Shown: piece by piece, positions 6,228 to 38,240 of the stretch | How the letters are laid out: every line of letters begins with the position of its first letter | How positions within the stretch are numbered: the first letter of the stretch is position 1 | Sequence record: MT932213.1 | Origin: Escherichia phage VEc74 | Strand: one strand, 5' to 3' | Length of the DNA: 64,000 nt | Program-made: the position numbers and the translations under genes | Notes under the pieces: model-generated | Database searches by the model: none | The model's input: only the letters and a program-made list of their open reading frames with translations | Told to the model about the DNA's origin: nothing

Positions 6228-6262
6228 TTAATAATACCACGGTTTGAACTTGTTGTAAACAA
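6228..6262 (-). promoter_or_regulatory. T4-type early promoter (-35 GTTTAC, -10 TATTAT)
   Basis: minus-strand GTTTAC (plus 6255..6260), ~18-nt spacer, TATTAT, then SD and ATG of 6024..6200. Confidence 0.45.
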
Positions 6263-6358
6263 CTTTGTGAAAAATATTTTAGGGAATGATAAGAAAGGAA
6301 CGATAGCTTAGAATGGTAATATACAGAATGTGAGAAAGAAAGGCCCAGAGGGCCAGTC

Positions 6359-6682
6359 TTAATCTTCTATGATATCTCTATCATATCCAAGTGAAATGAG
6401 AGTTTCTTTGAAGTGTTTAATGTTCTTTTGTCTAGAATCATTAATGAAAATGACTGGATAACGAATGTTAAGAGATGTGAATCCAGCGCGTTTAGCAAGA
6501 GATACAATCAGCGGACGATCATACTCAATCTTACCATTATTTGTAAGAACTTTATAGAAAGTAAAAGGAGCATTGAGCTCCTTTAGAAGTTTTGTAACTG
6601 ATTGACATCCAGGACAACGACCTACTTCATCTGGAATTCCATAGACTTCAATCTTATTCTTTAAGTTCGAGTTTTGTTCCAC
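6359..6682 (-). CDS. nrdH: Glutaredoxin/NrdH-like redoxin (CPGC active site)
   Basis: EVYGIPDEVGRCPGCQSV... thioredoxin-fold CxxC; ORF-track N-terminus overlaps upstream gene, so start placed at GTG 6682 (AAGGAA SD). Confidence 0.55.
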   Translation of the reverse strand: MEQNSNLKNKIEVYGIPDEVGRCPGCQSVTKLLKELNAPFTFYKVLTNNGKIEYDRPLIVSLAKRAGFTSLNIRYPVIFINDSRQKNIKHFKETLISLGYDRDIIED

Positions 6683-6965
6683 GAGAAATAATTCCTTGGT
6701 AAGCCCAATAAGGAGGATTAACAGAATCCTCACCAGAGTTTTCTTCAGGAAAATAAACCTGGATAACGAAGCCGGATTCATCAAAGGTGAAATAAGTAGT
6801 AGGCAGTTCACCTAACAAATCGGCACGAGCGTTGATTTCTTCGAGGTCTTGTTCACGTCCAGCCCAGAAGCTTGGGTTCAGACTACATTCATAGAAATAA
6901 TAGTCATTACCGAACATATCAAAACCATTCCAACTCTCTACTACATACCGCTCAAAACTAATCAT
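6654..6965 (-). CDS. Hypothetical protein
   Basis: ORF track, 103 aa. Confidence 0.5.
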   Translation of the reverse strand: MISFERYVVESWNGFDMFGNDYYFYECSLNPSFWAGREQDLEEINARADLLGELPTTYFTFDESGFVIQVYFPEENSGEDSVNPPYWAYQGIISRGTKLELKE

Positions 6966-6967
6966 AA

Positions 6968-7183
6968 TTAAGCCTTTTTATCAAGAACCGCATTCAGCTT
7001 GTTAGTAATTTTATCCAGACGCTCATTGAACTCACTAGAAGATAAGCCCTTTTCTGGAGAAATTAAACTAATCACGAAAAATATAGCAATAAAAGGAATA
7101 AGGAAAATAGCTCCAACTGCCATAAACAGAAAGAATGTTACAGTTGTAAGAAAATCAGCTAAACCTTTACGAAATTTATACAT
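6968..7183 (-). CDS. Small membrane protein (single TM helix)
   Basis: TVTFFLFMAVGAIFLIPFIAIFFVISLI hydrophobic segment. Confidence 0.45.
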   Translation of the reverse strand: MYKFRKGLADFLTTVTFFLFMAVGAIFLIPFIAIFFVISLISPEKGLSSSEFNERLDKITNKLNAVLDKKA

Positions 7184-7298
7184 ATTTTACCCTTAATTGA
7201 TTAACCAAGCATTGATAAGCACTAAACTATACTGCGAATAAAATTCTGGACCAAAATGAAAAATCATATCATTTATAGTATCCATAATATAATTCAAT

Positions 7299-7769
7299 TT
7301 AATCATGTTTCCACACCCCATCGGTATTTGACCAAAGTCGCTGATTATCTGATCCTCGCCACAGCTTTTTAGTCGGAAGATTTTTCTCATACTTCCCATC
7401 AATAATAACATCAACATATTTAAGCATTTCTAGTTGTTTAATATCTTCAAATTTATATCCTGTCCACAACCAAATGCTTTTATTGGGATAAAGATTTTTT
7501 ACTGTTTGAACGATGCAATGAATAACATCTCGGTTATCAGGATAGAGAGGGTCTCCTCCAGTTATAGTTAATCCTTCTATATAATCATTATTCAAACATT
7601 CAATTAATTGTTCTAGTGTTTCACCAGTGAATGGAATACCATTTCTAGCATTCCATGTTGATTTATTATAACACCCTTCACATTTATGCAAACAACCTGT
7701 AACGAAAAGAACGACCCTGCAACCAGGGCCATTCACAAAATCGCAAGGATAAAATCTATCATAATTCAT
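7299..7769 (-). CDS. nrdG: Anaerobic ribonucleotide reductase activating protein (radical SAM)
   Basis: 156 aa; CxxxCxxC cluster motif CLHKCEGCY; adjacent to nrdD. Confidence 0.85.
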   Translation of the reverse strand: MNYDRFYPCDFVNGPGCRVVLFVTGCLHKCEGCYNKSTWNARNGIPFTGETLEQLIECLNNDYIEGLTITGGDPLYPDNRDVIHCIVQTVKNLYPNKSIWLWTGYKFEDIKQLEMLKYVDVIIDGKYEKNLPTKKLWRGSDNQRLWSNTDGVWKHD

Positions 7770-9583
7770 TGGTGTTTAACCCTATGCATGATTTCTTTAT
7801 TTTTGCCGAGATTAAATCCACGTTCGTTCGGATTTCCCAAATAACCACATGTTCTTCTTATGGTATTCATCTTTTTAGGATCAGTTTCTCCACAAATAGA
7901 ACAAACAAATCCGTTTTCAGTAGGAGTCATTTCATGGGTACTTCCACATGTAAAACATTTATCCACTGGCATATTAACACCAAAATAATCTAAATGTTGT
8001 GCAGCATAATCCCATACGGCCTCAAGACCTTTCAAGTTATTTTTCATATCAGGAAGTTCAACATAAGAAATGTGACCACCTGTCGCAATGAAATGATATG
8101 GCGCTTCACGAGAAATCTTTTCAAACGGAGTAATATTTTCTTCTACTGAAACATGGAAACTGTTAGTGTACCAGCCTTTATCGGTAACATCTTTTACACT
8201 TCCATATTTTTCTGTATCAAGTTTACAGAAGCGATAACAAAGGTTTTCAGCAGGAGTCGAATATAAACTAAAAGCAAATCCGGTTCTTTCAGTCCACTGT
8301 TTAAGATGAGCATTCATTTTAGTTAAAATTTCTCGTCCAATATCACGACCGGCAAGAATATTCAATTCGTGAATACCAATGTATCCTAAAGACACTGAAC
8401 TTCTGCCGTTTTTAAATAACTCAATTATATCGTCATCAGGTTTAAGACGAACCCCGAATGCACCTTCTTGATAAAGAATAGGAGCAACAGTAGCTTTAAC
8501 TCCTTTTAAGGAACTAATTCTACACATCAAAGCTTCAAAACATAAATCCATTCGCTCATTGAACAATTCGATAAATTTCTGTTCATTGAACTGTGTTCCA
8601 ATATAAGAATCTAATGCGATACGAGGAAGATTCAGTGTTACAACACCAAGATTATTACGTCCATCAAGAATTTCATTACCGGTTGAATCTTTCCACACAC
8701 CCAAGAAACTGCGGCAACCCATTGGAGAAACAGGAATAGATGAGCCGGTGATAGCTTTATTGTTCTTAGCTGAAATAATATCAGGATACATTCTTTTGCT
8801 TGCGCACTCTAGAGCAAGCTGCTTAATATCATAGTTCGGATCGTCTTTATAAAGATTAACACCTTCTTCAACAAACATAACAAGCTTAGGGAAAATAGGA
8901 GTTATCCCATCACGACCAAGACCTTTAATACGATTTTTCAGAATTGCTTTCTGAATCATTCGTTCAGTCCAGTCAGTTCCCGTACCAAATGTAATTGTTA
9001 CAAAAGGCGTTTGTCCGTTTGAACTAAAGAGAGTGTTTACTTCATATTCATAAGCTTGAAATGCATCGTATACGTCTTTTTCTGTTTTAGATTGAGCATA
9101 ATTCAACGCATCAGCGATTTGCCATTTTTCTGCATCCTCAATATGTTTTGCATAGGTGCGTTTAACATAAGGAGAAAGTACTTTATCTACATTCGCAAAA
9201 GTCGTTCCGCCGTATTGGTGAGAAGCAACCTGTGCAGTAATTTGTGCCATAATTGCAGTAGCAACACCGATTGATTTAGGAGTTTCAATCTGTGCATTAC
9301 CAAGCTTAAATCCATTCTCAAGCATTCCTTTTAAATCTACTAAACAACAATTAGTAAATGGAAGAGCAGGGGAATAATCAATATCGTGGAAATGGATAAT
9401 TCCGCTTTCATGCGCTTTCATAATAAAAGACGGGACCATATTTTTGGCAATGTGTTTAGACACAATACCAGCCATAAGGTCCCGTTGAGTTGGAAAAACA
9501 CGAGAATCTTTATTAGCATTCTCGTTTAAAAGGTCTTTATTAGTTTTATGAATCAATCCTTCAATTTCTTTTTCAATTGTCAT
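7766..9583 (-). CDS. nrdD: Anaerobic (class III) ribonucleotide reductase, uninterrupted
   Basis: 605 aa; C-terminal glycyl-radical motif RRTCGYLG and Zn-ribbon CFTCGS...CSICG; single continuous ORF (no intron). Confidence 0.9.
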   Translation of the reverse strand: MTIEKEIEGLIHKTNKDLLNENANKDSRVFPTQRDLMAGIVSKHIAKNMVPSFIMKAHESGIIHFHDIDYSPALPFTNCCLVDLKGMLENGFKLGNAQIETPKSIGVATAIMAQITAQVASHQYGGTTFANVDKVLSPYVKRTYAKHIEDAEKWQIADALNYAQSKTEKDVYDAFQAYEYEVNTLFSSNGQTPFVTITFGTGTDWTERMIQKAILKNRIKGLGRDGITPIFPKLVMFVEEGVNLYKDDPNYDIKQLALECASKRMYPDIISAKNNKAITGSSIPVSPMGCRSFLGVWKDSTGNEILDGRNNLGVVTLNLPRIALDSYIGTQFNEQKFIELFNERMDLCFEALMCRISSLKGVKATVAPILYQEGAFGVRLKPDDDIIELFKNGRSSVSLGYIGIHELNILAGRDIGREILTKMNAHLKQWTERTGFAFSLYSTPAENLCYRFCKLDTEKYGSVKDVTDKGWYTNSFHVSVEENITPFEKISREAPYHFIATGGHISYVELPDMKNNLKGLEAVWDYAAQHLDYFGVNMPVDKCFTCGSTHEMTPTENGFVCSICGETDPKKMNTIRRTCGYLGNPNERGFNLGKNKEIMHRVKHQ

Positions 9584-13207: not shown

Positions 13208-14209
13208 TTACTTAATTAACTGTAAAGCTTGTTCAAGACGATCCAGGCGATTAACAGATTCTTCCCAAATCCTTTTAGCCTGCTCATATTCTTTCTGCGC
13301 TTTGTTAGAAATTTCTAGAACTTCTTTATAAGCTTTTTCTAGTGCAATAACTTCTGGACGAATTTCTACCGGTTCAGGTGAATCATCAAGATTATCCATT
13401 AGTTCCTCAAGGGTAGTTTCTTCTTTAGGAGTATTCACAATTTCATCACATTTTTGTTGGTAAATTTCTTTATCAGTAGGTGAATAAGCACATTTCACTT
13501 CACGAAGACTAATTACAATTTTATATCCTTCCCAGCCGCACATATTCTTAAAAGGATATGTATGAATATTTTCTACTGTTTCCATACAAAGTAATGCGGT
13601 CTCTAATTGACGAGTTATAGTGCTAGCAATTGAGAAAAATTTATTAATATTCTTTTGGTTAGCTTCTGGTGTAAAAAATCCATAATTCACAAAAATAGAT
13701 ACTTTATTTTTATCAAGTTCATATTCTTTTATGATAATCATATCAGAAGCCAAAGGATGAATTTGACGATAATCGCCATAACATAATTTAGAAGCTGATT
13801 TTAGAATTTGCTTCTTAAAAAGTCTGAAATTACTAATCCAACGACGAGTAAAAATATTCTCAGGGTCTTCTTTGACATTAAGATGATAAGAATTAACATC
13901 ACCGAACCAATTATATCCTACTACATCTTTGGTTCGTTTAATTTCTTTCCCAAAATTACCAAGAATATCCCGATTAACCAAATATGAAAGAAGACGAGAC
14001 TCTTTAAAGGTTTTCTTGATAACATCTTTATCTACACGGCTAGAAATTTTACGAATTTCATGAATAAATTTAGTAGAAGAAACAATACTTGCATCAACAC
14101 TATTGAGCCACTGATTGATAATAGAAATAACGCTATTTTGGCCAAACATCGGTATAGCTTTACCATCAATAACGCTATTGAATGATTTGATATATTCGTT
14201 ACGAGTCAT
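13208..14209 (-). CDS. Hypothetical protein, paralog family member 2 (C-terminal coiled coil)
   Basis: ORF track 13208..14260 trimmed to ATG 14209 (GAGGAG SD, own early promoter); C-terminal EYEQAKRIWEESVNRLDRLEQALQLIK. Confidence 0.6.
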   Translation of the reverse strand: MTRNEYIKSFNSVIDGKAIPMFGQNSVISIINQWLNSVDASIVSSTKFIHEIRKISSRVDKDVIKKTFKESRLLSYLVNRDILGNFGKEIKRTKDVVGYNWFGDVNSYHLNVKEDPENIFTRRWISNFRLFKKQILKSASKLCYGDYRQIHPLASDMIIIKEYELDKNKVSIFVNYGFFTPEANQKNINKFFSIASTITRQLETALLCMETVENIHTYPFKNMCGWEGYKIVISLREVKCAYSPTDKEIYQQKCDEIVNTPKEETTLEELMDNLDDSPEPVEIRPEVIALEKAYKEVLEISNKAQKEYEQAKRIWEESVNRLDRLEQALQLIK

Positions 14210-14235
14210 AATAATCTCCTCAGTAGAAAGTAAGA

Positions 14236-14268
14236 ACATTATACCACATCCTTGTGGCAAAGTAAACT
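14236..14268 (-). promoter_or_regulatory. T4-type early promoter
   Basis: minus-strand GTTTAC (plus 14262..14267) ... TATAAT ... GAGGAG SD ... ATG 14209. Confidence 0.45.
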
Positions 14269-15286
14269 AGTTCAGTGCATTTAGTGCATTGTTCAGTTTA
14301 GAACGTTGCTTTGTCAGATTTTGAACCCTTGACTGAGCTTGTTCTAACGCCTTTTCAGCTTCTAACACTTCATTGGTCGCTTTAACGAGTTCATCATCTA
14401 CTGCCTTAAGGGACTTCTCAATCGCATCCGCGTGCCATTTTTCAACAGGTTTAAGACTCGGATTTTCAATAGGAAGAAAATTCACTTTATTGAATTTCCA
14501 TGCATCTTTATTACCTGAACTATACATCCAAAATTTAGGATCATTTGACGAGTAATTAGATAAATTTAAGTTATCTTGCACTTCCTGCTTTTTCTCTTGC
14601 GGGACTTCGTCCTTTCTCAAAAAATCGTATTTAAATGAAACGATCATATCAAGTTCATATGATGTTGTATCTAACTTAAATCGTTCAAAACGAGGTAAAA
14701 TCTTAGATTGAACAGCAGCAACAACATCCATATACTTAAATGCTTCTGTCAACTGTGATTTAAGGCATTCACAAATTGAAAGAGAATTTTTTGTATTAGG
14801 TTTAAAGCTAATTCGTGCAGTTCTATTATTTTCTTTTAACGGTCTTACTTCCATCTGAAGAGTATAACCATCAAATTTCAGATTCTTTAAGTTAATATCA
14901 GAGCCTTTTAATCGACTAGCAGTAGACAAAATTTGCTTTAATTGTCTACGGAACAGAGCAATAAATCTCCATTCAATACGATAATGATTTGGATTGAAAA
15001 ATCCAGATGATAAATCGACCTTACTTTGACCAACGCCTTGAACAAATAGAGGATTTTTATAATCAATAGTTTTACAGAAATCGGTGAGCTGCTCACGAGC
15101 AGTCATTTGTGTAATATACCCCGCTTTATTAAAATGACGTAACCATTCACTGCTATTCATATATTTAAAGTGAATATCACGATTAACTTTATCAGGGTCT
15201 AAATTATTTTGGCACAAAAATGTCATAACATCACGAGTATAGCTGGCATTACGAACCATATCTTCAATTTGAGAACGAGTTTTCAT
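14267..15286 (-). CDS. Hypothetical protein, paralog family member 3 (C-terminal coiled coil)
   Basis: 339 aa; MKTR... N-terminus; C-terminal EVLEAEKALEQAQSRVQNLTKQRSKLNNALNALN. Confidence 0.6.
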   Translation of the reverse strand: MKTRSQIEDMVRNASYTRDVMTFLCQNNLDPDKVNRDIHFKYMNSSEWLRHFNKAGYITQMTAREQLTDFCKTIDYKNPLFVQGVGQSKVDLSSGFFNPNHYRIEWRFIALFRRQLKQILSTASRLKGSDINLKNLKFDGYTLQMEVRPLKENNRTARISFKPNTKNSLSICECLKSQLTEAFKYMDVVAAVQSKILPRFERFKLDTTSYELDMIVSFKYDFLRKDEVPQEKKQEVQDNLNLSNYSSNDPKFWMYSSGNKDAWKFNKVNFLPIENPSLKPVEKWHADAIEKSLKAVDDELVKATNEVLEAEKALEQAQSRVQNLTKQRSKLNNALNALN

Positions 15287-17177: not shown

Positions 17178-17201
17178 TTTGTGTTCCTCCGTAGTTGATA
17201 G

Positions 17202-17237
17202 TTGTATAGTACCACAGAGGAACAGTCTTGTAAACCA
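17202..17237 (-). promoter_or_regulatory. T4-type early promoter
   Basis: minus-strand GTTTAC (plus 17230..17235) and TGGTACTATAC extended -10. Confidence 0.45.
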
Positions 17238-28321: not shown

Positions 28322-28341
28322 TTCTGTATTTACCCATTACC
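28292..28341 (-). repeat. Direct repeat copy 1 (carries the start codon of 27734..28321)
   Basis: 31-nt core gaattgtccatttctgtatttacccattacc repeated 29/31 at 28947..28977. Confidence 0.6.
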
Positions 28342-28414
28342 GCACTTGGGCTCGACCTTATTACAGGTTGGCGGGAATCCCTCACAGAATCATGAGGTCC
28401 AGGTTGTTCCCATG

Positions 28415-28888: not shown

Positions 28889-28929
28889 GTATATCCTTTA
28901 AATGTAAATAGTTTTATTCTTTAAGTTTT

Positions 28930-28977
28930 GGACAATTCATGCGTGTGAATTGTCCGTTTCTATATTTACCCATTACC
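28930..28977 (-). repeat. Direct repeat copy 2 with perfect palindrome ggacaattca/tgaattgtcc; start codon position reads ACG
   Basis: 28947..28977 is 29/31 identical to copy 1; 28930..28955 forms a 10-bp-stem hairpin. Confidence 0.6.
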
Positions 28978-28996
28978 AGGTTCGAACTCGGCTTTA

Positions 28997-29561
28997 TTAA
29001 GAATTACCGCGGGCTGCATTAGCAACGGCGTAAGCGTACTGAACATTAGCGTCTTTAAACGTACCTTTAGAGGTATCTAGTTCTGCCTTAAAGCCACCTT
29101 TAGTCATAACCTCGGCGAATTCTTTACGGAAAGCCATTGCATCAAGACTTCTCCATGATGATTTGTGCTTGGCGAATTCAAGACCAGCGTAGTTGACAGC
29201 CTTAGCTAATTTATTATCAATAACCCATTTACCAGCTTTAGGCACAAACACCGGGCCTTTCTGTTTAGAGAACAGTTTTAAATTCCAGCGACGAAGGTCA
29301 CCGTCGGCTTTAACAAAAGCTGCGTCTAAGTTACTAGCAACAACATCCTGAATATGGCCAAATTTAAGCCCATCAACTTCAATATTTAGATCGGTACGCC
29401 AGCGAAGTCCTTCCCAAGCGAAAGCTTTAAAGTCGGAAGCCTTTGTAGCTAAGTACCGTTCAATAGGAGCCGTTTCCCGATCGATAGGTCCACTCATCTT
29501 TATTAATGCCTTTGGCCTTTTCCACAGAAGCTTCAGCGATAAATTCTTTATACGTTTTCAT
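28997..29561 (-). pseudogene. Internal-protein-like gene with frameshift between CTS leader and body (or sequencing indel)
   Basis: ATG at 29561 encodes MKTYKEFIAEASVEKAKGINKDEW... which stops after 33 codons; the 166-aa body (28997..29497) is in the -1 frame and that frame is open across the junction. Confidence 0.45.
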
Positions 29562-29577
29562 GTGTTTCCTTTAATTT

Positions 29578-29895
29578 TTATTCTTTAGGGAAGTTTTTAG
29601 AATATGCATCATAAAGCTTATTTCCAATACGGCGGAAAACTCTAGCCGCAAAACGATTTTCTGGGTTTTTAATCATGATTTGCATCATATAAGTACCCGC
29701 GTCAGAAAGAGCTTCTTCATAGTACCCATTAATTTCTTTAAGAGTCCTACGTTTACCACCAGGACCATCAACAGTGATTTTCCATTTACCTGTAGAAGTG
29801 CGACTTGGCGGCTCAACTTGTTCAATCCAGATATAACCACCTTCTACACGTTGTCCTGCAGCAGATTCTGCAATAAATTCTTGATAGGTTTTCAT
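29578..29895 (-). CDS. Internal-protein-like capsid-targeted protein (CTS leader MKTYQEFIAES)
   Basis: 105 aa, basic; CTS leader; own early promoter. Confidence 0.65.
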   Translation of the reverse strand: MKTYQEFIAESAAGQRVEGGYIWIEQVEPPSRTSTGKWKITVDGPGGKRRTLKEINGYYEEALSDAGTYMMQIMIKNPENRFAARVFRRIGNKLYDAYSKNFPKE

Positions 29896-29944
29896 GTGTT
29901 TCCTTTAAATATTTTAATTAGTAATTTGTCTCTTCAAGTAACTG

Positions 29945-29982
29945 TGAATATACTATCACAATTCCAAGAGAAAGTAAACAAC
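29945..29982 (-). promoter_or_regulatory. T4-type early promoter
   Basis: minus-strand GTTTAC (plus 29974..29979) upstream of 29578..29895. Confidence 0.45.
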
Positions 29983-29983
29983 T

Positions 29984-30952
<969 letters not shown>

Positions 30953-30971
<19 letters not shown>

Positions 30972-31315
30972 TCACTCACAAACTCTTTCATTGACTCATT
31001 TTCAATATAAGACATGTAGCTATTATATTCCTTTAATTGTATTTTGTAATCCTTTTTTCTTTGCCAATTTATTTTAAAATTATCATAATGAAAATATAAA
31101 ATGATACCAAAGAATGAAAACAATGAAATAATTTTAGTATAACAAAGCTCACTCCAAACTTCTGTTATATTTACTGTGCCGTCGATGTTTAAAATAAGAC
31201 AGTCAATTAACAATCCAAAAAGACTACCCGCAAGAGCTGCAGCCAACGCCACAGCAAAAATTAAAAATGACTCAGGAAACGAATATTTGACTTTATTTAG
31301 TTTTGGCTTTTGCAT
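30953..31315 (-). CDS. Membrane protein
   Basis: Hydrophobic segments (FLIFAVALAAALAGSLFGLLIDCLIL). Confidence 0.45.
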
Positions 31316-31710
31316 CGTGATTCCTTAACAAATTTCATAATTTCATCAAATTCATACGCAGCAAGTTTAAGCTGATGTTCCTTTTTAATCTTTTTACACT
31401 GTGCTTTCCAATCACGTACGCGTTTACGATAATGTCTTCCTTGATACCAGTATCCTACCCAATTTACGGGTACTAATAAAAGTGGAACTATTAATGGAAG
31501 AATTAGCATTAACACAAGTATTTCGCCAGAATCAATATCAGTCATAACATCTAAAACACCTCCAATAATCAATAGAATTACAAATGATATAAGTATAACA
31601 GGACCTATTAATACATCAGTAGAAATTATCTGACGCTTTAATTCATACTTCAACGGTTTACTTGGAAGGTATAGTGATGGTTTTGACATATTCTCTACAT
31701 TCCTTAACAA
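31297..31710 (-). CDS. Membrane protein
   Basis: Two TM-like segments; basic C-terminus. Confidence 0.45.
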   Translation of the reverse strand: MLRNVENMSKPSLYLPSKPLKYELKRQIISTDVLIGPVILISFVILLIIGGVLDVMTDIDSGEILVLMLILPLIVPLLLVPVNWVGYWYQGRHYRKRVRDWKAQCKKIKKEHQLKLAAYEFDEIMKFVKESRCKSQN

Positions 31711-32266
31711 ATTTTTCTAGTAATAAATCACTTTCAAAATTAGGATTTTCCACTAATTTATCAAAAAGATCATCAACAATATTCAAGATATTTCTTTTAC
31801 TAAGAATACGTTTATTTTCATGCTTCGTTTCAGAATCAACTATAAGAGTAAAGAAATATTTCTTTCCCTGAAATTTTACCGTAGTATCAATATAGAATAA
31901 ATTTGACTTTTGTAAGTTACGTTTAAACCATGCGTCACTTAAACTATAAACACCGAGATAATCAAAATCGTCGTTTAAATAACAAACTGTCCATTCAGGA
32001 GAAATGAAATCAGTAAATTCAACATCAAAATCGCATGTCAATGAATAAATTGATTCAATACTGTTAATAAGTATTCCAGGACGTATTAAAGACTTTTTAC
32101 CTCTGGAAAATCTTCCAGAAAGACTTTCATCAGTTTCATATGAAGAACCCCAATAATAATTACGTCCTTCTGCCATGCGTTTAAGAGCATTTAGCAATTG
32201 GTCTGGAACATCAACCTGTCTTTGGAACTCTTCAAACATTGAATTGAAATCACTTTGCATTTTCAT
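31658..32266 (-). CDS. Hypothetical protein
   Basis: ORF track, 202 aa. Confidence 0.5.
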   Translation of the reverse strand: MKMQSDFNSMFEEFQRQVDVPDQLLNALKRMAEGRNYYWGSSYETDESLSGRFSRGKKSLIRPGILINSIESIYSLTCDFDVEFTDFISPEWTVCYLNDDFDYLGVYSLSDAWFKRNLQKSNLFYIDTTVKFQGKKYFFTLIVDSETKHENKRILSKRNILNIVDDLFDKLVENPNFESDLLLEKFVKECREYVKTITIPSK

Positions 32267-32286
32267 TCCTATTTACTCCAAGTAAT

Positions 32287-32302
32287 AGGGGCCGAAGCCC
32301 CT
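32287..32302 (-). terminator. GC-rich tetraloop hairpin (weak terminator/RNA-stability element)
   Basis: aggggccgaagcccct directly after stop of 32308..32901. Confidence 0.35.
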
Positions 32303-32307
32303 TATCA

Positions 32308-32901
32308 TTATTTCAGAGAATTAATATATTCCTGAACATCGGCAGAGGTAGTTTCAACCCCAGAAATATTACCATTAAAGGTTTCAACTCGAGCAAGAGT
32401 ATCTTCAATATCAACCTTAGTTAGCGCTGCGATTTCAACTACATCATCGGCAGTACTAATTCCAAGGGCATTTGCCGCACGAGTTTCACGGATATATTCC
32501 AATTTAACTGCAAGTTCTTGGCGAGCATCATCTAACTCAACTACTTTCTTGGCGATTTCAATTCGCATTTCAGCATAACCATCAGCTTTAGTAGTCAACT
32601 GTTCAGCTGTTCGACGATATAACAAGCCAAGTTTAGCATGCATTGTTACATCTTGACCTTCGGAAAGAAGCTTGCGAATTTCACGCTCTTTTGATTCGGC
32701 TTGCTTATTCTTTTCGACAATAAGTTCACGAATACGCTTTTCTTCATTAATAGATTTAACGGAAGCAGTTTTTAGATCTTTAATCTTATCAAGTAGTTTT
32801 GCTGCTGCAGCAGTATACTGTTCTTCAACAGATAGATTTTTAGCCATAGCAGAACCAAGTTTAGTGCGAATAAACTCAACAATTTTCTTCAGTGTGTTCA
32901 T
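32308..32901 (-). CDS. Hypothetical coiled-coil protein
   Basis: 197 aa, long helical/charged repeats. Confidence 0.5.
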
Positions 32902-32944
32902 AGTATTTCCTTAGGTTGATTAAGATTTAAAATCCGTGAGAGTA

Positions 32945-33121
32945 TTATACTCCGGATAGTTTGTAAACTATTTCAACATCGCCTTTTGCTGCTTTATAAC
33001 CTTCAGCCCAAGATACAACCGAGTTTTTATCTGAAGATTCAAATTCTGGCATTGGGCTTTCGCCAATGTTCACGCAGTATGTTTCTTCATTTTCGTCGAA
33101 CCAAATAATTAAAGTAGTCAT
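32945..33121 (-). CDS. Hypothetical small protein (58 aa)
   Basis: MTTLIIWFDENEETYCVNIGESPMPEF...; GGAGAA SD; absent from ORF track. Confidence 0.4.
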   Translation of the reverse strand: MTTLIIWFDENEETYCVNIGESPMPEFESSDKNSVVSWAEGYKAAKGDVEIVYKLSGV

Positions 33122-33189
33122 TTATTTCTCCGTTTCTGTATTTGTTTTGATAAGTCTATAATAACACCGTCCTTGGTGTTTGTACACAA

Positions 33190-33453
33190 TTATTTCATAT
33201 TATTGAAATATTCTTCTGCGATTTCGTCGTTATCATGGTAAACTTTAGAAGACAGTTTAACATAACCTTCTGCCGTGAACATATTAATCACAACCTTTAC
33301 AGTATACCACTGACCATCTTCATTACCCATTACTGCATAGGTTTCAAACATCGGATGGTCAGGACCGATAACTTTAATATCATTCACTGTACGACCAAAA
33401 TCTTCTGAAACGCATTTCATAAAGAAGTTGAACAGTTCACCGTAATTATCCAT
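33190..33453 (-). CDS. Hypothetical protein (start at ATG 33453)
   Basis: ORF track 33190..33516 trimmed; GGAGAATAAAATG context; own early promoter. Confidence 0.5.
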   Translation of the reverse strand: MDNYGELFNFFMKCVSEDFGRTVNDIKVIGPDHPMFETYAVMGNEDGQWYTVKVVINMFTAEGYVKLSSKVYHDNDEIAEEYFNNMK

Positions 33454-33494
33454 TTTATTCTCCAAGTTGTTTTCTGTATCAGTAGTTGATAGTT

Positions 33495-33528
33495 GTATAG
33501 TACCATGGAAGGACAAGGATGTAAACTG
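33495..33528 (-). promoter_or_regulatory. T4-type early promoter
   Basis: minus-strand GTTTAC (plus 33521..33526), TGGTACTATAC. Confidence 0.45.
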
Positions 33529-33654
33529 TTTTGTGAAAAAATTTTTAAAAGTTTTAGGGAATTCTAGGGGCAGGGAGGGGCAATTAAAAGATAGGATAAT
33601 ATATTATAAAGGATAGAAACTAAATGATGCCTAGAGATGTCTGGAAAGGCCTAG

Positions 33655-33688
33655 ATACCAAAAAGCCCCAACCTTTCGGTCGGGGCTA
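33655..33688 (-). terminator. Rho-independent terminator at the end of the tRNA/small-RNA transcription unit
   Basis: minus-strand GCCCCGACCGAAAGGUUGGGGC hairpin followed by UUUUUGG. Confidence 0.6.
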
Positions 33689-33699
33689 AGCCTTGCGGC

Positions 33700-34003
33700 A
33701 ACCTTGTCGGGGTTCCACCTGCTAAGGCAAGTGTTTGTACGAAACGCCGGGATTCGAACCCGGTTATTAAGTAGTTGACGCTACTCAATATTTTTAAAAG
33801 GCCATATCTCGACCATATCCGAACGTTCCGTCAAAAACGCTACTCGGCTTACGGCAAAGATATTTCCTCGAATCGATAATTCGGTGCGCCGTTTCTGCTG
33901 TGATATAAGGGGACATTAACAAAACATAAAGATTTATTAATGCCAGTCCTTAAACAGGGAACATCAGTCCGACGACTTGCCGGTAGCGACCCGGCTTCTT
34001 GTC
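33700..34003 (-). ncRNA. Small stable RNA region with tRNA-like elements (T4 rnaC/rnaD-like position); boundaries not resolved
   Basis: No ORF; contains a T-arm-like CCGGGTTCGAATCCCGG and an anticodon-arm-like hairpin without an acceptor stem; lies between tRNA-Arg and the terminator. Confidence 0.3.
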
Positions 34004-34079
34004 TGGTCGAGGCAGTAGGGATCGAACCTACGACCCAGGACTTAGAAGGTCCTTGCTCTTCCTTCTGAGCTATGCCTCG
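34004..34079 (-). tRNA. tRNA-Arg (anticodon UCU)
   Basis: Hand-folded cloverleaf: acceptor CGAGGCA/TGCCTCG, anticodon loop CUUCUAA, T-loop GGTTCGATCC, encoded CCA. Confidence 0.85.
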
Positions 34080-34083
34080 TATT

Positions 34084-34158
34084 TGGCGGACGTGATAGGA
34101 TTCGAACCTATAACCAATCGCTTAACAGGCGATCGCTCTGCCATTGAGCTACACATCC
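34084..34158 (-). tRNA. tRNA-Asn (anticodon GUU)
   Basis: Acceptor GGATGTG/CACGTCC, anticodon stem ATCGC/GCGAT with loop CUGUUAA, T-loop GGTTCGAATCC, CCA. Confidence 0.85.
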
Positions 34159-34162
34159 AAAT

Positions 34163-34249
34163 TGGTGGGGAGTGGTGGAGTCGAACCACCCGAGTCGCAA
34201 TGACAATGGATTTACAGTCCACACCGCTACCTCTACGGGATAACTCCCC
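34163..34249 (-). tRNA. tRNA-Tyr (anticodon GUA), long variable arm
   Basis: Acceptor GGGGAGT/ACTCCCC, anticodon loop CUGUAAA, long variable arm, T-loop GGTTCGACTCC, CCA. Confidence 0.8.
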
Positions 34250-34259
34250 CAAATTAATT

Positions 34260-34334
34260 TGGTGGCCCTGGGTGGAATTGAACCACCATCTGGCGATTAT
34301 GAGTCGCTTGCTTGAACCTTCCAGCTACAGGGCC
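34260..34334 (-). tRNA. tRNA-Ile (anticodon CAU, T4 tRNA-Ile type; tRNA-Met not excluded)
   Basis: Acceptor GGCCCTG/CAGGGCC, anticodon loop CUCAUAA, T-loop GGTTCAATTCC, CCA. Confidence 0.8.
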
Positions 34335-34335
34335 T

Positions 34336-34411
34336 TGGTGCTGATTGACGGAATCGAACCGCCGACCTTCTCATTACAAGTGAGTTGCTCTACCTACTAA
34401 GCTAAATCAGC
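34336..34411 (-). tRNA. tRNA-Thr (anticodon UGU)
   Basis: Acceptor GCTGATT/AATCAGC, anticodon loop CUUGUAA, T-loop GGTTCGATTCC, CCA. Confidence 0.85.
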
Positions 34412-34416
34412 AAAAC

Positions 34417-34506
34417 TGGCGGAGGCGATAGGATTTGAACCTATGAGTCGCCGGAGCGACTGCCGGTTTTCAAGACCGGTGCATTAAACCACTCTGCCAC
34501 GCCTCC
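34417..34506 (-). tRNA. tRNA-Ser (anticodon UGA), long variable arm
   Basis: Acceptor GGAGGCG/CGCCTCC, anticodon stem CCGGT/ACCGG with loop CUUGAAA, long variable arm, CCA. Confidence 0.85.
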
Positions 34507-34508
34507 AG

Positions 34509-34582
34509 TCTCCGCGGCAGGATTTGAACCTGCGACATTCTGCTCCCAAAGCAGACGCTCTACCAAACTGAGCTACACGGAG
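34509..34582 (-). tRNA. tRNA-Pro (anticodon UGG), CCA not encoded
   Basis: Acceptor CTCCGTG/CGCGGAG, anticodon loop UUUGGGA, T-loop GGTTCAAATCC; discriminator followed by CU then tRNA-Ser (2-nt spacer). Confidence 0.85.
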
Positions 34583-34592
34583 TAAATTAAAT

Positions 34593-34666
<74 letters not shown>

Positions 34667-34671
34667 AAATT

Positions 34672-34758
34672 TGGTGCGAGAAGTGGGACTCGAACCCACA
34701 AGGAAATCATTCCGCAGCATTTTAAGTGCTGTGCCTTTACCAATTTGGCCATTCTCGC
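34672..34758 (-). tRNA. tRNA-Leu (anticodon UAA), long variable arm
   Basis: Acceptor GCGAGAA/TTCTCGC, anticodon stem CAGCA/TGCTG with loop CUUAAAA, long variable arm, T-loop GGTTCGAGTCC, CCA. Confidence 0.85.
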
Positions 34759-34764
34759 GCTATA

Positions 34765-35397
34765 TTATTTATTACGTGAAAAAGACTGTTCTATCAATTC
34801 TGGACACTTTCGTTCTATCCATTTTCTAGCTTTTTGTGGGCTTATACCTATTATTTTAGCAGCTTTACTAACCCATCCAAATTTAGAATAATCGATTTTA
34901 ACTAATTCTTCGTAAATTTCATCAGTTAAAATCTTTTCATTAATATTTACCAGTAAATGATATAATTTATTATCATTAGCAATTTTAATGAATCTTTTAT
35001 AGTTTCCGCCTTTACTTAAGCCTAATGAAGTAATTGCAGATGATATAGTAGCCGAATTTAATAGTGCGTTTAAAATTTCTTCATCACTAACATTATAACG
35101 CTTTTTATTATTTTTAATATTTTTACCAGCAAAAGTATCAGTTTGCGAATGGCAGTTTGGACATAATAATCTTAAATTTGATTTAAGATGATTTTTGTTA
35201 TTTCCATCAATATGGTCTAATTGCAGAACAATATGCTTATTTTGCCATTTTGAAATTTTACAAATTGCACACTCATATGGAAAAATATTTTCTTTTATTA
35301 TTTTGTCTTTCAGCTTTCCTGTACTAAAATTTGGATGTTTTCCTTCAAAAATTTCAGCTAATTTAGTATCCATAATATGATTCCCAATTATTAACAA
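34765..35397 (-). CDS. HNH homing-endonuclease-like protein (free-standing)
   Basis: HNH signature CAIC...LQLDHIDGNNKNH...NLRLLCPNCH plus C-terminal HTH-like region; stop 6 nt upstream of tRNA-Leu. Confidence 0.7.
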   Translation of the reverse strand: MLIIGNHIMDTKLAEIFEGKHPNFSTGKLKDKIIKENIFPYECAICKISKWQNKHIVLQLDHIDGNNKNHLKSNLRLLCPNCHSQTDTFAGKNIKNNKKRYNVSDEEILNALLNSATISSAITSLGLSKGGNYKRFIKIANDNKLYHLLVNINEKILTDEIYEELVKIDYSKFGWVSKAAKIIGISPQKARKWIERKCPELIEQSFSRNK

Positions 35398-35472
35398 AGG
35401 CTCTCAAATAAGAACCCTTGATGATAGAGGGTATTAATCAGTGCGGTATGAGTTAATAATAACAAATAATTC

Positions 35473-35997
35473 TTAAAGCAAATTAAACATTTTAACGGTC
35501 GGCAAAACAATTTCTTCTTCTATATAAGAGTATTTAACACTCTCAACTACACGCAAAAAATCATAATCATAATACTCAGAAGCATTACCTAAAATATTAG
35601 TAAGTCCTTCAAGCACTTTATTACCATTCACAAAGAATAAGTCAAATACACGTTCTTCGTCTTCTTCGGATTTATTACCAAGGTCAACTTCTATGTCAAA
35701 GACCTTTTTAATGAATTCTGGATAAAGTTGTTCTGAGAACAGTCCTTCAACCAAGTATTCATAAATAAAAAGCGATTGCTCGCTGAACAAGCCATTACCA
35801 CAATAACGTTCAGCTTTAGTACTAGAATGTCTGCTTTTAAACTTCTTTAAAAGATATTGGAACTGTAAGATTTCATGCTCTTCTACGCCAAACAGTGTTT
35901 TAGTTTTATAATTGTCACCATCATTTTCCCAGGTAGTGACATCAATTACGTAACCCTGCGGAATTGTAGTACCTAAACAAATATTCATTTTCACCAC
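35473..35997 (-). CDS. Hypothetical protein
   Basis: ORF track, 174 aa. Confidence 0.5.
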   Translation of the reverse strand: MVKMNICLGTTIPQGYVIDVTTWENDGDNYKTKTLFGVEEHEILQFQYLLKKFKSRHSSTKAERYCGNGLFSEQSLFIYEYLVEGLFSEQLYPEFIKKVFDIEVDLGNKSEEDEERVFDLFFVNGNKVLEGLTNILGNASEYYDYDFLRVVESVKYSYIEEEIVLPTVKMFNLL

Positions 35998-36281
35998 GCT
36001 GCATTAATATAAGTATATTTAATACATTCAAGACTTAAAGGATTCTTGAAAATATCATATTCAAGAGGACCTTTTTCTGTTTCAATAAAGAAATCAAAAT
36101 TTACTGTATTAAATTTACGGTCTTCCTTCACTAATTTAACCTGAGAAGATGAACGGTCAATGTAAACCTTTTCAACTTCAAAACATGTTAAAATGCCATA
36201 ATCATCAATCAAGGCTTTAGCTGCTTCTTGATCATATTTATATCCATTTTCAACGGATGATACTTTCGCATAAAGAATCAT
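35991..36281 (-). CDS. Hypothetical protein
   Basis: ORF track. Confidence 0.45.
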   Translation of the reverse strand: MILYAKVSSVENGYKYDQEAAKALIDDYGILTCFEVEKVYIDRSSSQVKLVKEDRKFNTVNFDFFIETEKGPLEYDIFKNPLSLECIKYTYINAAW

Positions 36282-36283
36282 TA

Positions 36284-36667
36284 TCAGCCTTCATCAACAA
36301 TAGTATGAGTATGGGCATTTACGATTTGCCACCAATCAAAGCGATTAGAACCATACATCGGTTTGTTTTCATTTTCTTTGATAATATCACGGAGTTCATC
36401 TTCGGTAGCGGCTTTCGCGATTAAATCAGCATATCCACCACGAGGATAATAATTATCACCTGCAAAAAGTAAAAAATTTGGTGTAATATTATTGAACTCT
36501 TCAAGAGTAATAACTGTTCCTGATGGTAGTTGAACAATCTCTACATAGTTATATCCTAATTTTTGAGCAGCATCTACTGCTTCAAGCAGAGTATCATGAG
36601 CCCGTCCTATTTGGCAATTTGGCTTTTTAGATGGATTAGCCTGATAATCCGCGTACACTTTATACAT
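36284..36667 (-). CDS. Hypothetical protein (start at ATG 36667 with AGGTGA SD)
   Basis: ORF track 36284..36706 trimmed. Confidence 0.45.
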   Translation of the reverse strand: MYKVYADYQANPSKKPNCQIGRAHDTLLEAVDAAQKLGYNYVEIVQLPSGTVITLEEFNNITPNFLLFAGDNYYPRGGYADLIAKAATEDELRDIIKENENKPMYGSNRFDWWQIVNAHTHTIVDEG

Positions 36668-36668
36668 T

Positions 36669-36854
36669 CTATTCACCTTTAGAAATTTTATCCATAACGA
36701 TAGCAATTAAACCAATTAAAAATGCTACTACAAGTGAAAACACATTTTCTGCTGTAGTTAATAATCCGCATATAAATCCAACAAACATTGAAAAACTAAA
36801 AGCGGAAGCAGAAATTGCAATAGCAGCATTTCGAATTAATTCACAACGTTTCAT
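36669..36854 (-). CDS. Small membrane protein (61 aa, two hydrophobic helices)
   Basis: AAIAISASAFSFSMFVGFICGLL and FSLVVAFLIGLIAIV; own early promoter and GAGGAG SD. Confidence 0.5.
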   Translation of the reverse strand: MKRCELIRNAAIAISASAFSFSMFVGFICGLLTTAENVFSLVVAFLIGLIAIVMDKISKGE

Positions 36855-36879
36855 TTTATTCTCCTCAGTAGTTGATAGG

Positions 36880-36915
36880 GTAATAGTATCACAACTAAAA
36901 CCCTATGTAAACAAT
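36880..36915 (-). promoter_or_regulatory. T4-type early promoter (cassette 1)
   Basis: minus-strand GTTTAC (plus 36907..36912), TGATACTAT; leader ...CAACTACTGAGGAGAATAAAATG. Confidence 0.5.
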
Positions 36916-37140
36916 TTATTCAACACCAGCGGCTTTCAAAAGTTTTTTAAGATTGGCAACACCTTGAGCAGAAAATGTGACCTTGCCACCTTTTTCACTG
37001 ATAGAACCAACCAATTTAGCAAGTTTATCATTAGGAATTTTTTTAAAATCAGACAATGTTCCATCAAAGGTTTTTGAAACAAAAGGCAGTTCGTCTTCGC
37101 GTCTTTTAGCTTCTACAATAAATTCTTTAGATGTTTTCAT
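36916..37140 (-). CDS. Internal-protein-like capsid-targeted protein (CTS MKTSKEFIVEA)
   Basis: 74 aa, Lys-rich; CTS leader; own promoter. Confidence 0.6.
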   Translation of the reverse strand: MKTSKEFIVEAKRREDELPFVSKTFDGTLSDFKKIPNDKLAKLVGSISEKGGKVTFSAQGVANLKKLLKAAGVE

Positions 37141-37164
37141 TTTATTCTCCTCAGTAGTTGATAG

Positions 37165-37200
37165 GGTAATAATATCACTACCCCATCTAAAAGTAAACGG
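37165..37200 (-). promoter_or_regulatory. T4-type early promoter (cassette 2)
   Basis: minus-strand GTTTAC (plus 37193..37198), TGATATTAT. Confidence 0.5.
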
Positions 37201-37208
37201 TTTATAAA

Positions 37209-37517
37209 CTATTTTATTCCGCGTGATGCAATTGTGTTCTGCCGTTTAACGCCAGTTTGTTTAAAGTCATGATTGTCGATTTGATCGGTACGAGCAACTC
37301 CGAATGATGATTTGATCTTAGCTTTAGATCCTTTAGTTATAGAAATAAACATCTCGGAAGCCCCTTTCTTAAAGTCCGAGGCGATTACTTCAACGCCGTT
37401 CTTAGCAAGTGACTTCAGAATTGCCTCCGCATACTCATCATCAAGACTCGCCTGAGTATTAATAACGAATGTCTTTGGCGCAGCCGCTTCATTGATAAAT
37501 TCTTTAAATGTTTTCAT
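37209..37517 (-). CDS. Internal-protein-like capsid-targeted protein (CTS MKTFKEFINEA)
   Basis: 102 aa; CTS leader; own promoter. Confidence 0.6.
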   Translation of the reverse strand: MKTFKEFINEAAAPKTFVINTQASLDDEYAEAILKSLAKNGVEVIASDFKKGASEMFISITKGSKAKIKSSFGVARTDQIDNHDFKQTGVKRQNTIASRGIK

Positions 37518-37539
37518 TTTATTTTCCTAATTAATTTTG

Positions 37540-37580
37540 ATGAGATAATAGTATCACTACCCTATTTAAAAGTAAACTCA
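37540..37580 (-). promoter_or_regulatory. T4-type early promoter (cassette 3)
   Basis: minus-strand GTTTAC (plus 37572..37577), TGATACTAT. Confidence 0.5.
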
Positions 37581-37850
37581 TTTTAAATAAATTGCGTATT
37601 TTTTATAACCCGCTGACTCATGACGAAGACCCTTATCATTAGCAAAACGCTCAATGTTGTTAATTTGATTCTGATCAAGTTCAGAGATGTCAAACACGAA
37701 AAAGTTACGTTTGTTACCAACTGTTATATAGTCAGTTAAATCAATATCATATAGGTAATTGATGTCAGCAATCAAAGTCTTGACAGCTTTGCTAATTTTT
37801 ACTTTTTCGTTAAAAGCAGCTTCAGCAATAAATTCTTGATACGTTTTCAT
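37578..37850 (-). CDS. Internal-protein-like capsid-targeted protein (CTS MKTYQEFIAEA)
   Basis: ORF track 37578..37910 trimmed to ATG 37850 where the canonical CTS begins, with GAGGAG SD. Confidence 0.6.
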   Translation of the reverse strand: MKTYQEFIAEAAFNEKVKISKAVKTLIADINYLYDIDLTDYITVGNKRNFFVFDISELDQNQINNIERFANDKGLRHESAGYKKYAIYLK

Positions 37851-37874
37851 TTTATTCTCCTCAGTAGTTGATAG

Positions 37875-37912
37875 GATAATAGTATCACTACTAAAACCCC
37901 GTGTAAACAACT
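37875..37912 (-). promoter_or_regulatory. T4-type early promoter (cassette 4)
   Basis: minus-strand GTTTAC (plus 37903..37908), TGATACTAT. Confidence 0.5.
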
Positions 37913-37920
37913 TTGTGAAA

Positions 37921-38178
37921 TTATTTTAAATCTTCTAATCGTTTCTTCATCTTAGAACCGTTCTTAGCGATTTCGCCTGCATCAGAGCATAATGCTAAAA
38001 GCGCTTTAACTTTAGTTTGGTCTCCTTTAAAAGATGAAGGATCAACAGCAGCAGCAAGTTCTTTAATACGAGAGAAAAGACGCTCAGCTTCAGCTAAAGC
38101 CATTCCAAGCTTTACTTCCATACCGTGGGAAGATTCAGTAATAGTAGTTTTTGTAGCAAACTCTTTGAAAGTTTTCAT
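37921..38178 (-). CDS. Internal-protein-like capsid-targeted protein (variant CTS MKTFKEFATK...ITES)
   Basis: 85 aa; N-terminus related to CTS; own promoter. Confidence 0.55.
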   Translation of the reverse strand: MKTFKEFATKTTITESSHGMEVKLGMALAEAERLFSRIKELAAAVDPSSFKGDQTKVKALLALCSDAGEIAKNGSKMKKRLEDLK

Positions 38179-38204
38179 TTTATTTTCCTAATTAATTTTG
38201 ATGA

Positions 38205-38240
38205 GGTAATAGTATCACTACCTCATCAGCATGTAAACAA
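38205..38240 (-). promoter_or_regulatory. T4-type early promoter (cassette 5)
   Basis: minus-strand GTTTAC (plus 38233..38238), TGATACTAT. Confidence 0.5.

Follow-up and report, generated by a model that had tools for sequence, protein, structure and literature searches.

Why does a single promoter and leader module stand before so many early genes of Escherichia phage VEc74? In the 64,000 nucleotides (nt) analysed here (sequence record MT932213.1; the whole stretch is referred to as the window), a minus-strand module comprising a promoter, a leader and a Shine-Dalgarno (SD) sequence had been predicted to precede 14 genes and to mark, by its density, open reading frames (ORFs) that are recently acquired or exchangeable. 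Our analysis indicates that the copies are very probably early promoters fused to a leader and a ribosome-binding site (RBS), similar to the PeSL and PeSL-like cassettes described previously (Arbiol et al., 2010, PMC2839356; Comeau et al., 2014, PMC4122927), and that they serve as recombination joints at the internal-protein (Ip) loci and at nrdC.10 and are vertically inherited elsewhere. Shuffling correctly explains the Ip loci and a handful of further junctions, but as an interpretation of the remainder it is over-generalised. Every component, and the composite idea, is already published, and the result is therefore already known.

The window contains eight exact matches to GTTTAC-N18-TACTAT, on the minus strand only, compared with 0.03 expected, and the looser pattern GTTTA[CT]-N18-TA..[AT]T was found 16 times on the minus strand and never on the plus strand. 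A position weight matrix made from the copies scored 14 sites at 31-67 bits and one weak site, at 33187, at 13 bits, with shuffled windows peaking at no more than 11 bits. All copies lie on the minus (early) strand, with none on the plus strand and none within the late block at 42-64 kb. A generic sigma-70 scan of the window gave 89 sites against 87 expected, with no enrichment, indicating that what recurs is a specific extended motif. Furthermore, when repeats were sought in the window without bias, the cassette dominated the dispersed ones, accounting for families D1-D4, D6-D11 and D13. Outside the window, scanning IMG/VR with the core pattern gave 27 loci, and the same matrix found 35 sites in the complete related genome LF73P3, 35/35 on one strand. 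The predicted number of 14 strong copies was thus recovered, together with one weak copy, but one member of the original list was wrong: the copy placed before 21284 scores below threshold, and the actual cassette has its -35 element at 21449 and an ATG at 21391, ahead of mobD.2. The start of nrdC.10 was likewise corrected, from a TTG at 18622 to the ATG at 18610.

On sequence grounds the copies are T4-type early promoters (Pe), and this family assignment is secure. GTTTAC is exact at 14 sites, with a fixed 17 bp between TTTAC(A/T) and a -10 element of the form TAnnAT, and the fifteenth site has GTGTAC. The 14 strong copies all have an extended -10 element with TG one base upstream of the hexamer (GTGA/GTGG in 11, ATGG in 3). 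A/T-rich blocks such as AAAATAATTTCACAAAGTT are found upstream of the -35 element, and a promoter, an SD and an ATG are present in every copy. Published descriptions of Pe, the 'uber' promoters of the reviews, list GTTTAC at -36 to -31, an A-rich UP element, TGn and 'additional regions of consensus' (PMC2988021, PMC1524935), and the T4/PST PeSL consensus is TTTACW-N17-TAYWAT (Comeau et al., 2014, PMC4122927). Near-identical cassettes, spacers included, are present in T4 and T2 at 55.6, nrdC.4, nrdC.8, nrdC.10, mobD.2, mobD.5, regB, ipIII, e.8, trna.4 and ipI; promoter features are absent from the T4 GenBank records NC_000866 and AF158101. From the consensus and the positional orthology with T4 promoters we infer immediate-early firing, in which the host sigma-70 RNA polymerase would start at the UP element, GTTTAC, 17-bp spacing, TGn and -10 element immediately after infection.

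The copies had been described as more than 80% identical over about 50 nt, and this was confirmed by the repeat search, which aligned 37108-37181 with 37818-37891 (91% identity, 74 nt), 37497-37577 with 38158-38238 (86%, 81 nt), 37868-37936 with 38198-38266 (84%, 69 nt) and 17193-17235 with both 18632-18674 and 33484-33526 (81%, 43 nt). Perfect-identity tracts extend over 31-37 nt among neighbouring cassettes of the Ip locus and 22-24 nt among dispersed cassettes. Since homologous recombination in T4 needs less than 50 bp of homology (as cited in PMC2839356), neighbouring cassettes can recombine.

Exchange can be seen directly at Ip locus A (36.85-38.27 kb), a 1.4-kb region that holds 5 of the 14 cassettes. 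The first, at 38176-38268, sits after 57B and precedes Ip5 (85 amino acids; PHROG 3499, 'internal head protein'), with GTTTAC at 38238-38233, the TGn/-10 element TACTAT at 38214-38209, a leader ending in ..AATTAATTAGGAAAATAAA and the ATG at 38178. The cassette before Ip9 (90 amino acids; PHROG 7673) spans 37848-37938, with the -35 element at 37908, the -10 element at 37884-37879, the leader CAACTACTGAGGAGAATAAA and the ATG at 37850; its upstream half resembles the cassette at 38238 and its downstream half the cassette at 37198, so that it is a mosaic of the two. Ip7 (102 amino acids; PHROG 2667) is preceded by a cassette at 37515-37607 (-35 at 37577, -10 at 37553-37548, ATG at 37517) with a leader of the GGAAAATAAAA type, and a 74-amino-acid Ip (PHROG 8765, 'internal virion protein') by one at 37138-37228 (-35 at 37198, -10 TATTAT at 37174-37169, ATG at 37140). 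The last, at 36852-36942 (-35 at 36912, -10 at 36888-36883, ATG at 36854), stands before trna.4, which encodes a 61-amino-acid membrane protein.

Across this locus the ORF bodies are non-homologous to those of T4, T2, LF73P3 and HEMP5, and homology returns within the cassettes. Between trna.4 and 57B, ORF sets differ among 12 phages, with ipI in T4, Ip5-Ip7 in T2, Ip5-Ip9-Ip7 in RB32, Ip5-Ip9-Ip7-74aa in the window, Ip5-Ip6 in GiZh, Sf21 and HEMP5, ipI-Ip6 in JK38, Ip7 only in LF73P3, and a different order in the Mosigvirus ESCO47. At 80% coverage or more, the arrangement of the window was found in 0 of 812 matching records (50,697 phage records searched), a statistic that merges separate pieces into a single place and so misses insertions of less than about 900 nt. 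The 32 nt upstream of the -35 element, and usually the spacer too, travel with the preceding gene and the leader with the following gene, while the core from the -10 element to +1 is universal; the cassettes are therefore mosaic, with crossovers mostly in the -10/+1 core. Phage homologous recombination would cross over between neighbouring cassettes, either by unequal crossing-over or by exchange during co-infection, and each crossover would delete, insert or swap the intervening ORF and leave the promoter, the SD and, for the Ips, the packaging signal in working order. That promoter and SD cassettes of this kind act as shuffling joints in T4-type phages, as the original prediction had stated, is on record (PMC2839356; PMC4122927), including for the T-even Ip loci (Repoila et al., 1994, as cited in both).

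A small number of other junctions behave in a similar manner. The nrdC.10 cassette (18608-18723; -35 at 18674, ATG at 18610), with a strong terminator hairpin upstream at 18723-18704, is an insertion point that holds one extra ORF in T2 and two in LF73P3, each with its own cassette. Moreover, the promoter of the conserved nrdC.10 has been swapped in LF73P3, where the gene (minus-strand index 43179) is preceded by an Ip-type cassette (..GTGATACTATTACCCTATCAAAAC..) and not by the TGGTACTATACAACTATC type of the window, T4 and T2. Whole spacers in LF73P3 are identical between promoters 20-40 kb apart, indicating that whole cassettes get copied. Three further cassettes each bound a replacement on one side. 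The one before nrdC.4 (14207-14297; -35 at 14267, -10 TATAAT, ATG at 14209) is retained in LF73P3 with the first ~7 codons, and the ORF body is replaced. The weak cassette (33119-33217; GTGTAC at 33187, -10 TATTAT, 13 bits) precedes a 58-amino-acid ORF that stands in place of T4 e.7, and forms the right edge of the replacement relative to T4 and LF73P3. The third is the early promoter just downstream of gene e, described below with the second Ip locus. Shuffling is supported at the Ip loci and at nrdC.10, and in part at nrdC.4, at e.7 and at this promoter downstream of e.

The proposal that cassette density marks recent or exchangeable ORFs fails for the majority of copies outside the Ip loci. 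Those before 55.6, nrdC.4, nrdC.8, nrdC.10, mobD.2, mobD.5, regB, e.8 and trna.4 are position-orthologous and near-identical in T4 and T2, spacers included. Comparison with four relatives showed no breakpoints in the cassettes of 55.6 (6198-6354; -35 at 6260, -10 TATTAT, ATG at 6200, with a terminator-like hairpin upstream at 6354-6342), nrdC.8 (17175-17265; -35 at 17235, ATG at 17177), mobD.2 (34 codons; 21389-21479; -10 TATAGT at 21425-21420), mobD.5 (22201-22294; -35 at 22261, ATG at 22203), regB (26218-26307; -35 at 26277, -10 TATAAT at 26253-26248, SD GAGGAGAATAAC, ATG at 26220) and e.8 (33451-33556; -35 at 33526, -10 at 33502-33497, a long leader ACAACTATCAACTACTGATACAGAAAACAACTTGGAGAATAAA, ATG at 33453). 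An intrinsic-terminator-like hairpin at 22294-22277 lies directly upstream of the mobD.5 cassette, giving a terminator-plus-promoter layout. The e.8 cassette belongs to a subfamily that is dispersed genome-wide (2130 places in 739 records). Of 528 records, 496 keep the regB junction intact, and the nrdC.8 junction is undisturbed in 498 of 656; the corresponding 80% coverage result for nrdC.10 was left out as evidence of stability owing to the insertion blindness noted above. Given this orthology and the intact junctions, most non-Ip cassettes are vertically inherited promoters of conserved, non-essential early genes. At the six genes without breakpoints the cassettes are orthologous promoters, their junctions are stable, and they do not mark recent acquisition.

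The strongest competing explanation is pure functional convergence, in which independent selection for promoter strength, RegB sensitivity and translation would have produced the similarity with no role for recombination. Several results weigh on its side and against a general recombination role. The whole 70-nt promoters are no more alike than the position matrix predicts: the maximum pairwise identity, 0.76, equals the 99th percentile of the simulated maxima, although the null is generous, the matrix having been made from those same 14 sequences. Cassette footprints occupy 5.5% of the sequence and contain 37 of 120 breakpoint edges, but for non-Ip edges the figure is 9 of 82, from about three independent events and near the share of junctions that have a cassette. 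Most non-Ip breakpoints lie away from cassettes, many being homing-endonuclease or intron indels, and the relatives used to map them are closely related, so that the events are not independent. In addition, the nine non-Ip cassettes above are stable orthologues in T4 and T2, and most records retain the regB and nrdC.8 junctions intact. The original statement that conservation is far more than promoter function requires must consequently be narrowed. It does not apply to the full 70 nt, and the SD and first codons have functions; most of the 'excess' conservation arises because the promoter, the RegB/S1 site and the capsid-targeting codons are each functional. With no whole-promoter excess over the matrix, the excess similarity that does remain is limited to half-cassette blocks, spacers and leaders. 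Convergence nevertheless has difficulty with exactly these parts, as spacers, which are unconstrained by promoter function, are identical at 11-12 of 14 positions between Ip cassettes and identical at distances of 20-40 kb in LF73P3. Mosaic cassettes have halves that match different partners, Ip ORF replacements start and stop within cassettes, and the ORF-plus-cassette units of T2 and LF73P3 are inserted exactly inside the nrdC.10 cassette. We consider convergence alone to be improbable.

An integron-like or site-specific system, in which a dedicated recombinase would recognise a stem-loop in the cassette and move the ORFs, is less probable still. An inverted repeat is a conserved structure at the junctions, the loop and 3' arm of this repeat make up the shared -10/+1 core, where most Ip exchanges are located, and Arbiol et al. 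speculated on a stem-loop-binding protein (PMC2839356). However, the gene map of the window shows no recombinase gene beside the loci, the junctions fall at varied nucleotides (e.g., 36895/36917/36919 and 37181/37197/37216), stem sequences differ between loci, and the perfect tracts of 31-37 nt are within reach of T4 homologous recombination (PMC2839356).

The Ip genes themselves extend the module into the coding sequence. Seven ORFs begin MKT(Y/F/S)(Q/K)EF, and a conserved stretch of about 12 codons continues the cassette; this stretch encodes MKT(Y/F/S)(Q/K)EFI.E, the capsid-targeting peptide, which is similar to MKTYQEFIAE. In T4, residues -10 to -1, a 10-residue leader, are removed from IpII and IpIII (X04567). 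Five of the seven ORFs hit PHROG families annotated 'internal head/virion protein'. Ordinary gene-family expansion, with the Ip-locus repeats as 5' ends of tandemly duplicated paralogues, would suit adjacent, co-oriented and similarly small genes that all start alike, but was rejected because BLASTP of the seven proteins without their first 12 residues gave no pair at E < 0.3, each belongs to a different PHROG family, the non-Ip gene trna.4 has the same promoter and leader, and order and content vary combinatorially across phages, including the different order in the Mosigvirus, leaving this explanation about as improbable as a site-specific system.

A second Ip locus lies at 28.85-29.91 kb, next to gene e. 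The early promoter just downstream of e (29893-30009; -35 at 29979, -10 TAGTAT at 29955-29950, ATG at 29895) is the orthologue of the T4 promoter before ipIII; here it has a different leader (AAAGGAAACAC) and is followed by a 105-amino-acid ORF with a capsid-targeting peptide (PHROG 3966, an unannotated family). The locus also contains a promoter-less repeat family, D3, at 28853-28906, 29526-29579 and 29860-29913. The first of these holds the SD, ATG and capsid-targeting codons of Ip4 (MKTYQEFITEAA), which has no early promoter. The second coincides with a 33-codon ORF at 29460-29561 (minus strand), between the 105-amino-acid ORF and Ip4, which has an intact SD, a capsid-targeting start (MKTYKEFIAEAS...) and an early stop, and looks like a truncated remnant of an Ip gene. 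A 59-nt direct repeat (28305-28363 and 28941-28999, 78% identical), containing a stem-loop at 28929-28956, flanks Ip4, and about 565 nt (28423-28990) are missing from LF73P3 and HEMP5. These two features suggest that the Ip4 module may move by a promoter-less repeat and not by an early-promoter cassette. Late promoters were considered as drivers of the Ip genes and rejected, as the late-promoter box TATAAATA was not found upstream of them. Nor is the box present at the cassette sites; the nearest are two before gene e (30492-30512, minus strand), 13 nt apart and directly upstream of the gene. We take these paired boxes to be the known layout that lets late transcripts escape the SD-sequestering hairpin of the lysozyme mRNA.

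The leaders are more heterogeneous than had been proposed. The shared leader and SD sequence CAACTACTGAGGAGAATAAAATG is exact in three copies only (-35 at 36912, 37198 and 37908). Related forms occur at 17235, 14267, 33526 and 18674, while 38238 and 37577 (..AATTAATTAGGAAAATAAAATG), 26277, 22261, 21449, 29979 and 6260 have differing leaders. The optimal site for cleavage by RegB with ribosomal protein S1 is the 11-mer GGAGAAUAAAA (Durand et al., 2006, PMC1702504), and intergenic SDs were compared with the consensus GGAGAAUAAAA / GGAGRAYARAA (GGAG followed by an A-rich heptamer). The window has five exact matches to GGAGAATAAAA, found only on the minus strand and each directly next to the ATG of a cassette (18610, 33453, 36854, 37140 and 37850); tolerating one mismatch raises the number to 13, where 3.7 would be expected. 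The exact match to the published site suggests a RegB-mediated switch-off. With an SD that is an optimal RegB/S1 target, these early mRNAs would be built for strong but short expression and turned off within minutes. The gene regB itself carries GGAGAAUAACA, with one mismatch, and reviews report that RegB cuts its own SD; Ip5 and Ip7 differ in carrying GGAAAAUAAAA, GGAA being reported as very poorly cut (PMC1702504). Away from the cassettes, positions 5370-5380 (minus strand), before 55.2, read GGAUAAUAAAA (GGATAATAAAA) and match the rare GGAU-type site, which in T4 orf 55.2 is reported to be efficiently cleaved by RegB (Durand et al., PMC1702504).

A further property of the cassettes is a stem-loop around the -10 box. 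In the Ip5 cassette an inverted repeat at 38199-38228 (minus strand; arms GAUGAGGUAGUGA/UACUAUUACCUCAUC) places the -10 box in its loop, with a free energy of -17.4 kcal/mol and a z-score of -5.7 against dinucleotide shuffles. The same architecture was found at 37160-37187 (74-amino-acid Ip, z -3.6), 36875-36906 (trna.4, z -3.4), 26229-26267 (regB, z -5.7, with the 3' arm over the SD) and 21407-21442 (mobD.2, z -5.4), so that 5 of the 14 cassettes in the window reach z ≤ -3.4. The stem sequences are unrelated, but the geometry is shared: the spacer supplies the 5' arm and the leader the 3' arm. Throughout LF73P3, duplexes between cognate spacers and leaders average -11.2 kcal/mol, compared with -7.0 kcal/mol for non-cognate pairs (0 of 20,000 permutations as low). 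The spacer is complementary to its own leader in about half of the promoters. At regB, CCUCUUGACUG... pairs with ...CAGUUAAGAGG at -16 to -22 kcal/mol, and the hairpin is kept in three clades with differing stems and covariation, the RegB proteins being 100%, 77% and 68% identical. The nrdC.8 spacer, GTTCCTCTGTGG, is complementary to the SD region of nrdC.8 itself, CTACGGAGGAAC, and at nrdC.8 and several LF73P3 promoters the SD likewise forms part of a helix that has its 5' arm ahead of the start site. In the Ip cassettes the SD is outside the stem and uncovered. The stem-loop straddling the -10 box was rejected as a new element, being already annotated in 1986 in the T4 record X04567, where inverted repeats D/D', C/C', B/B' and A/A' surround the -10 boxes of regB, denV, ipII and ipIII, with the RBS placed in the 3' arm and the repeats labelled potential terminators. 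Weak AT-rich stem-loops in T-even Ip elements were also noted by Arbiol et al. (PMC2839356).

Complementarity between spacer and leader is demonstrated statistically, and from it we infer a possible function for the stem-loop. With the 5' arm upstream of the transcription start, only read-through transcripts could fold, and transcripts from the cassette's own promoter would be free. The stem-loop holding the -10 box would thus form solely in transcripts reading through from upstream, and folding may terminate, stabilise or translationally silence them. A bolder proposal is that spacer-leader complementarity is a general, selected design of T4-type phages, by which own-promoter transcripts are left open to ribosomes and RegB and read-through transcripts are masked; we regard this as tentative and, on balance, unlikely. 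The stem-loops have no U tract, leaving the terminator reading of 1986 unproven, and the masking of read-through transcripts is likewise unproven. If the bolder proposal were true, these genes would be translated only during the immediate-early burst that their own promoters produce, with regB, nrdC.8 and others masking the SD or RegB site; the novelty would lie in the generality and in a discriminating function at early promoters, the inverted repeats themselves having been annotated since 1986. In the mobD.2 hairpin, two positions that are A-U in T4 (~23147-23182) are G.U in the window and in T2. Pairing here is maintained only by counting G.U as a pair, a hint that the structure acts at the level of RNA and not of DNA.

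The 64-kb stretch is that of a T2/T4-like Tequatrovirus, with 95-97% identity at 30000-40000 to T2, RB32, phiD1 and hundreds more Tequatrovirus genomes, the figure for T2, RB32 and phiD1 being 96-97%. Its minus-strand block (1-41624) contains early and middle genes, from 47, a-gt and 55 via nrdC, mobD, tk, vs, regB and e to the tRNA cluster and the internal-protein genes, and then 57B, 57A, 1, 3, 2 and 4. The late genes, from 53 and 5 onwards, are on the plus strand, starting at 41672. Within gene 5, six tandem 24-nt (8-codon) repeats of the GTTGAAGGTAATGG.. kind at 43689-43856 (plus strand) are consistent with the beta-helix repeats of the tail-lysozyme needle. Differences from relatives were also seen away from cassettes, at 2951-2976, 7749-7769, 9045-9048, 19739-20702, 34761-35380 and 35492-36016. 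T4 has about 0.6-1.0 kb extra at the mobB, mobC and I-TevII intron positions and lacks a 210-amino-acid ORF (34765-35397) and a 174-amino-acid ORF (35473-35997). By their sequence, these presence/absence differences look like indels of the homing-endonuclease type.

Taken together, one more Tequatrovirus fits the textbook description of strong, stereotyped early promoters with what would be a built-in RegB off-switch, and the same cassettes would be joints for swapping injected anti-defence (Ip) proteins among phages. For annotation, early transcription units and small ORFs (mobD.2, for example) can be located with the cassette model, which also fixes starts such as that of nrdC.10 and singles out the Ip loci as what is truly exchangeable. 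The sole loose end with potential for novelty concerns the stem-loops embedded in the promoters, namely how general they are and what they do.

These properties can also be set beside known systems. The T4 early promoters (Hinton, 2010, PMC2988021; Nolan et al., 2006, PMC1524935) share GTTTAC, the 17-bp spacing, TGn, TAnnAT and the UP region with the cassettes, as well as the extra conserved positions, the place 5' of early and novel ORFs and the single direction of transcription; here the -10 element is more often TACTAT than TATAAT, and otherwise nothing substantive differs. The T4 proteins IpI, IpII and IpIII have the same decapeptide ending in Glu, small basic/acidic and unrelated bodies, and both canonical loci (trna.4-57B and next to e). 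The set is, however, specific to the genome, with Ip5-Ip9-Ip7-74aa at locus A and the 105-amino-acid ORF, the 33-amino-acid remnant and Ip4 at locus B. The hairpins of T4 e, soc, 49 and I-TevI sequester the SD and contain an internal promoter (Uzan and Miller, 2010, PMC3014915). At regB and nrdC.8, similarly, the 5' arm precedes the transcription start and the SD is covered by the 3' arm, but the internal promoter is early here and late there, and the SD of the Ip cassettes is uncovered. Finally, PeSL cassettes are alike in combining an AT-rich region, an early promoter, an SD and a start codon with an associated stem-loop, in clustering in plastic regions, and in that indels and replacements end within them, the Ip loci being the classic example. 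Crossovers are also placed alike: in RB49 their zones are the stem-loop or the stretch from the -10 element to the ATG, and here they are mostly in the -10/+1 core. The PeSLs of RB49 and phi1 have a G-rich terminator stem-loop upstream of the AT-rich region; in the window, upstream terminators are found at three cassettes only (18723-18704, 22294-22277 and 6354-6342), and the recurrent stem-loop straddles the -10 box without a U tract. The T-even elements were termed analogues, and not homologues, by Arbiol et al. (PMC2839356).

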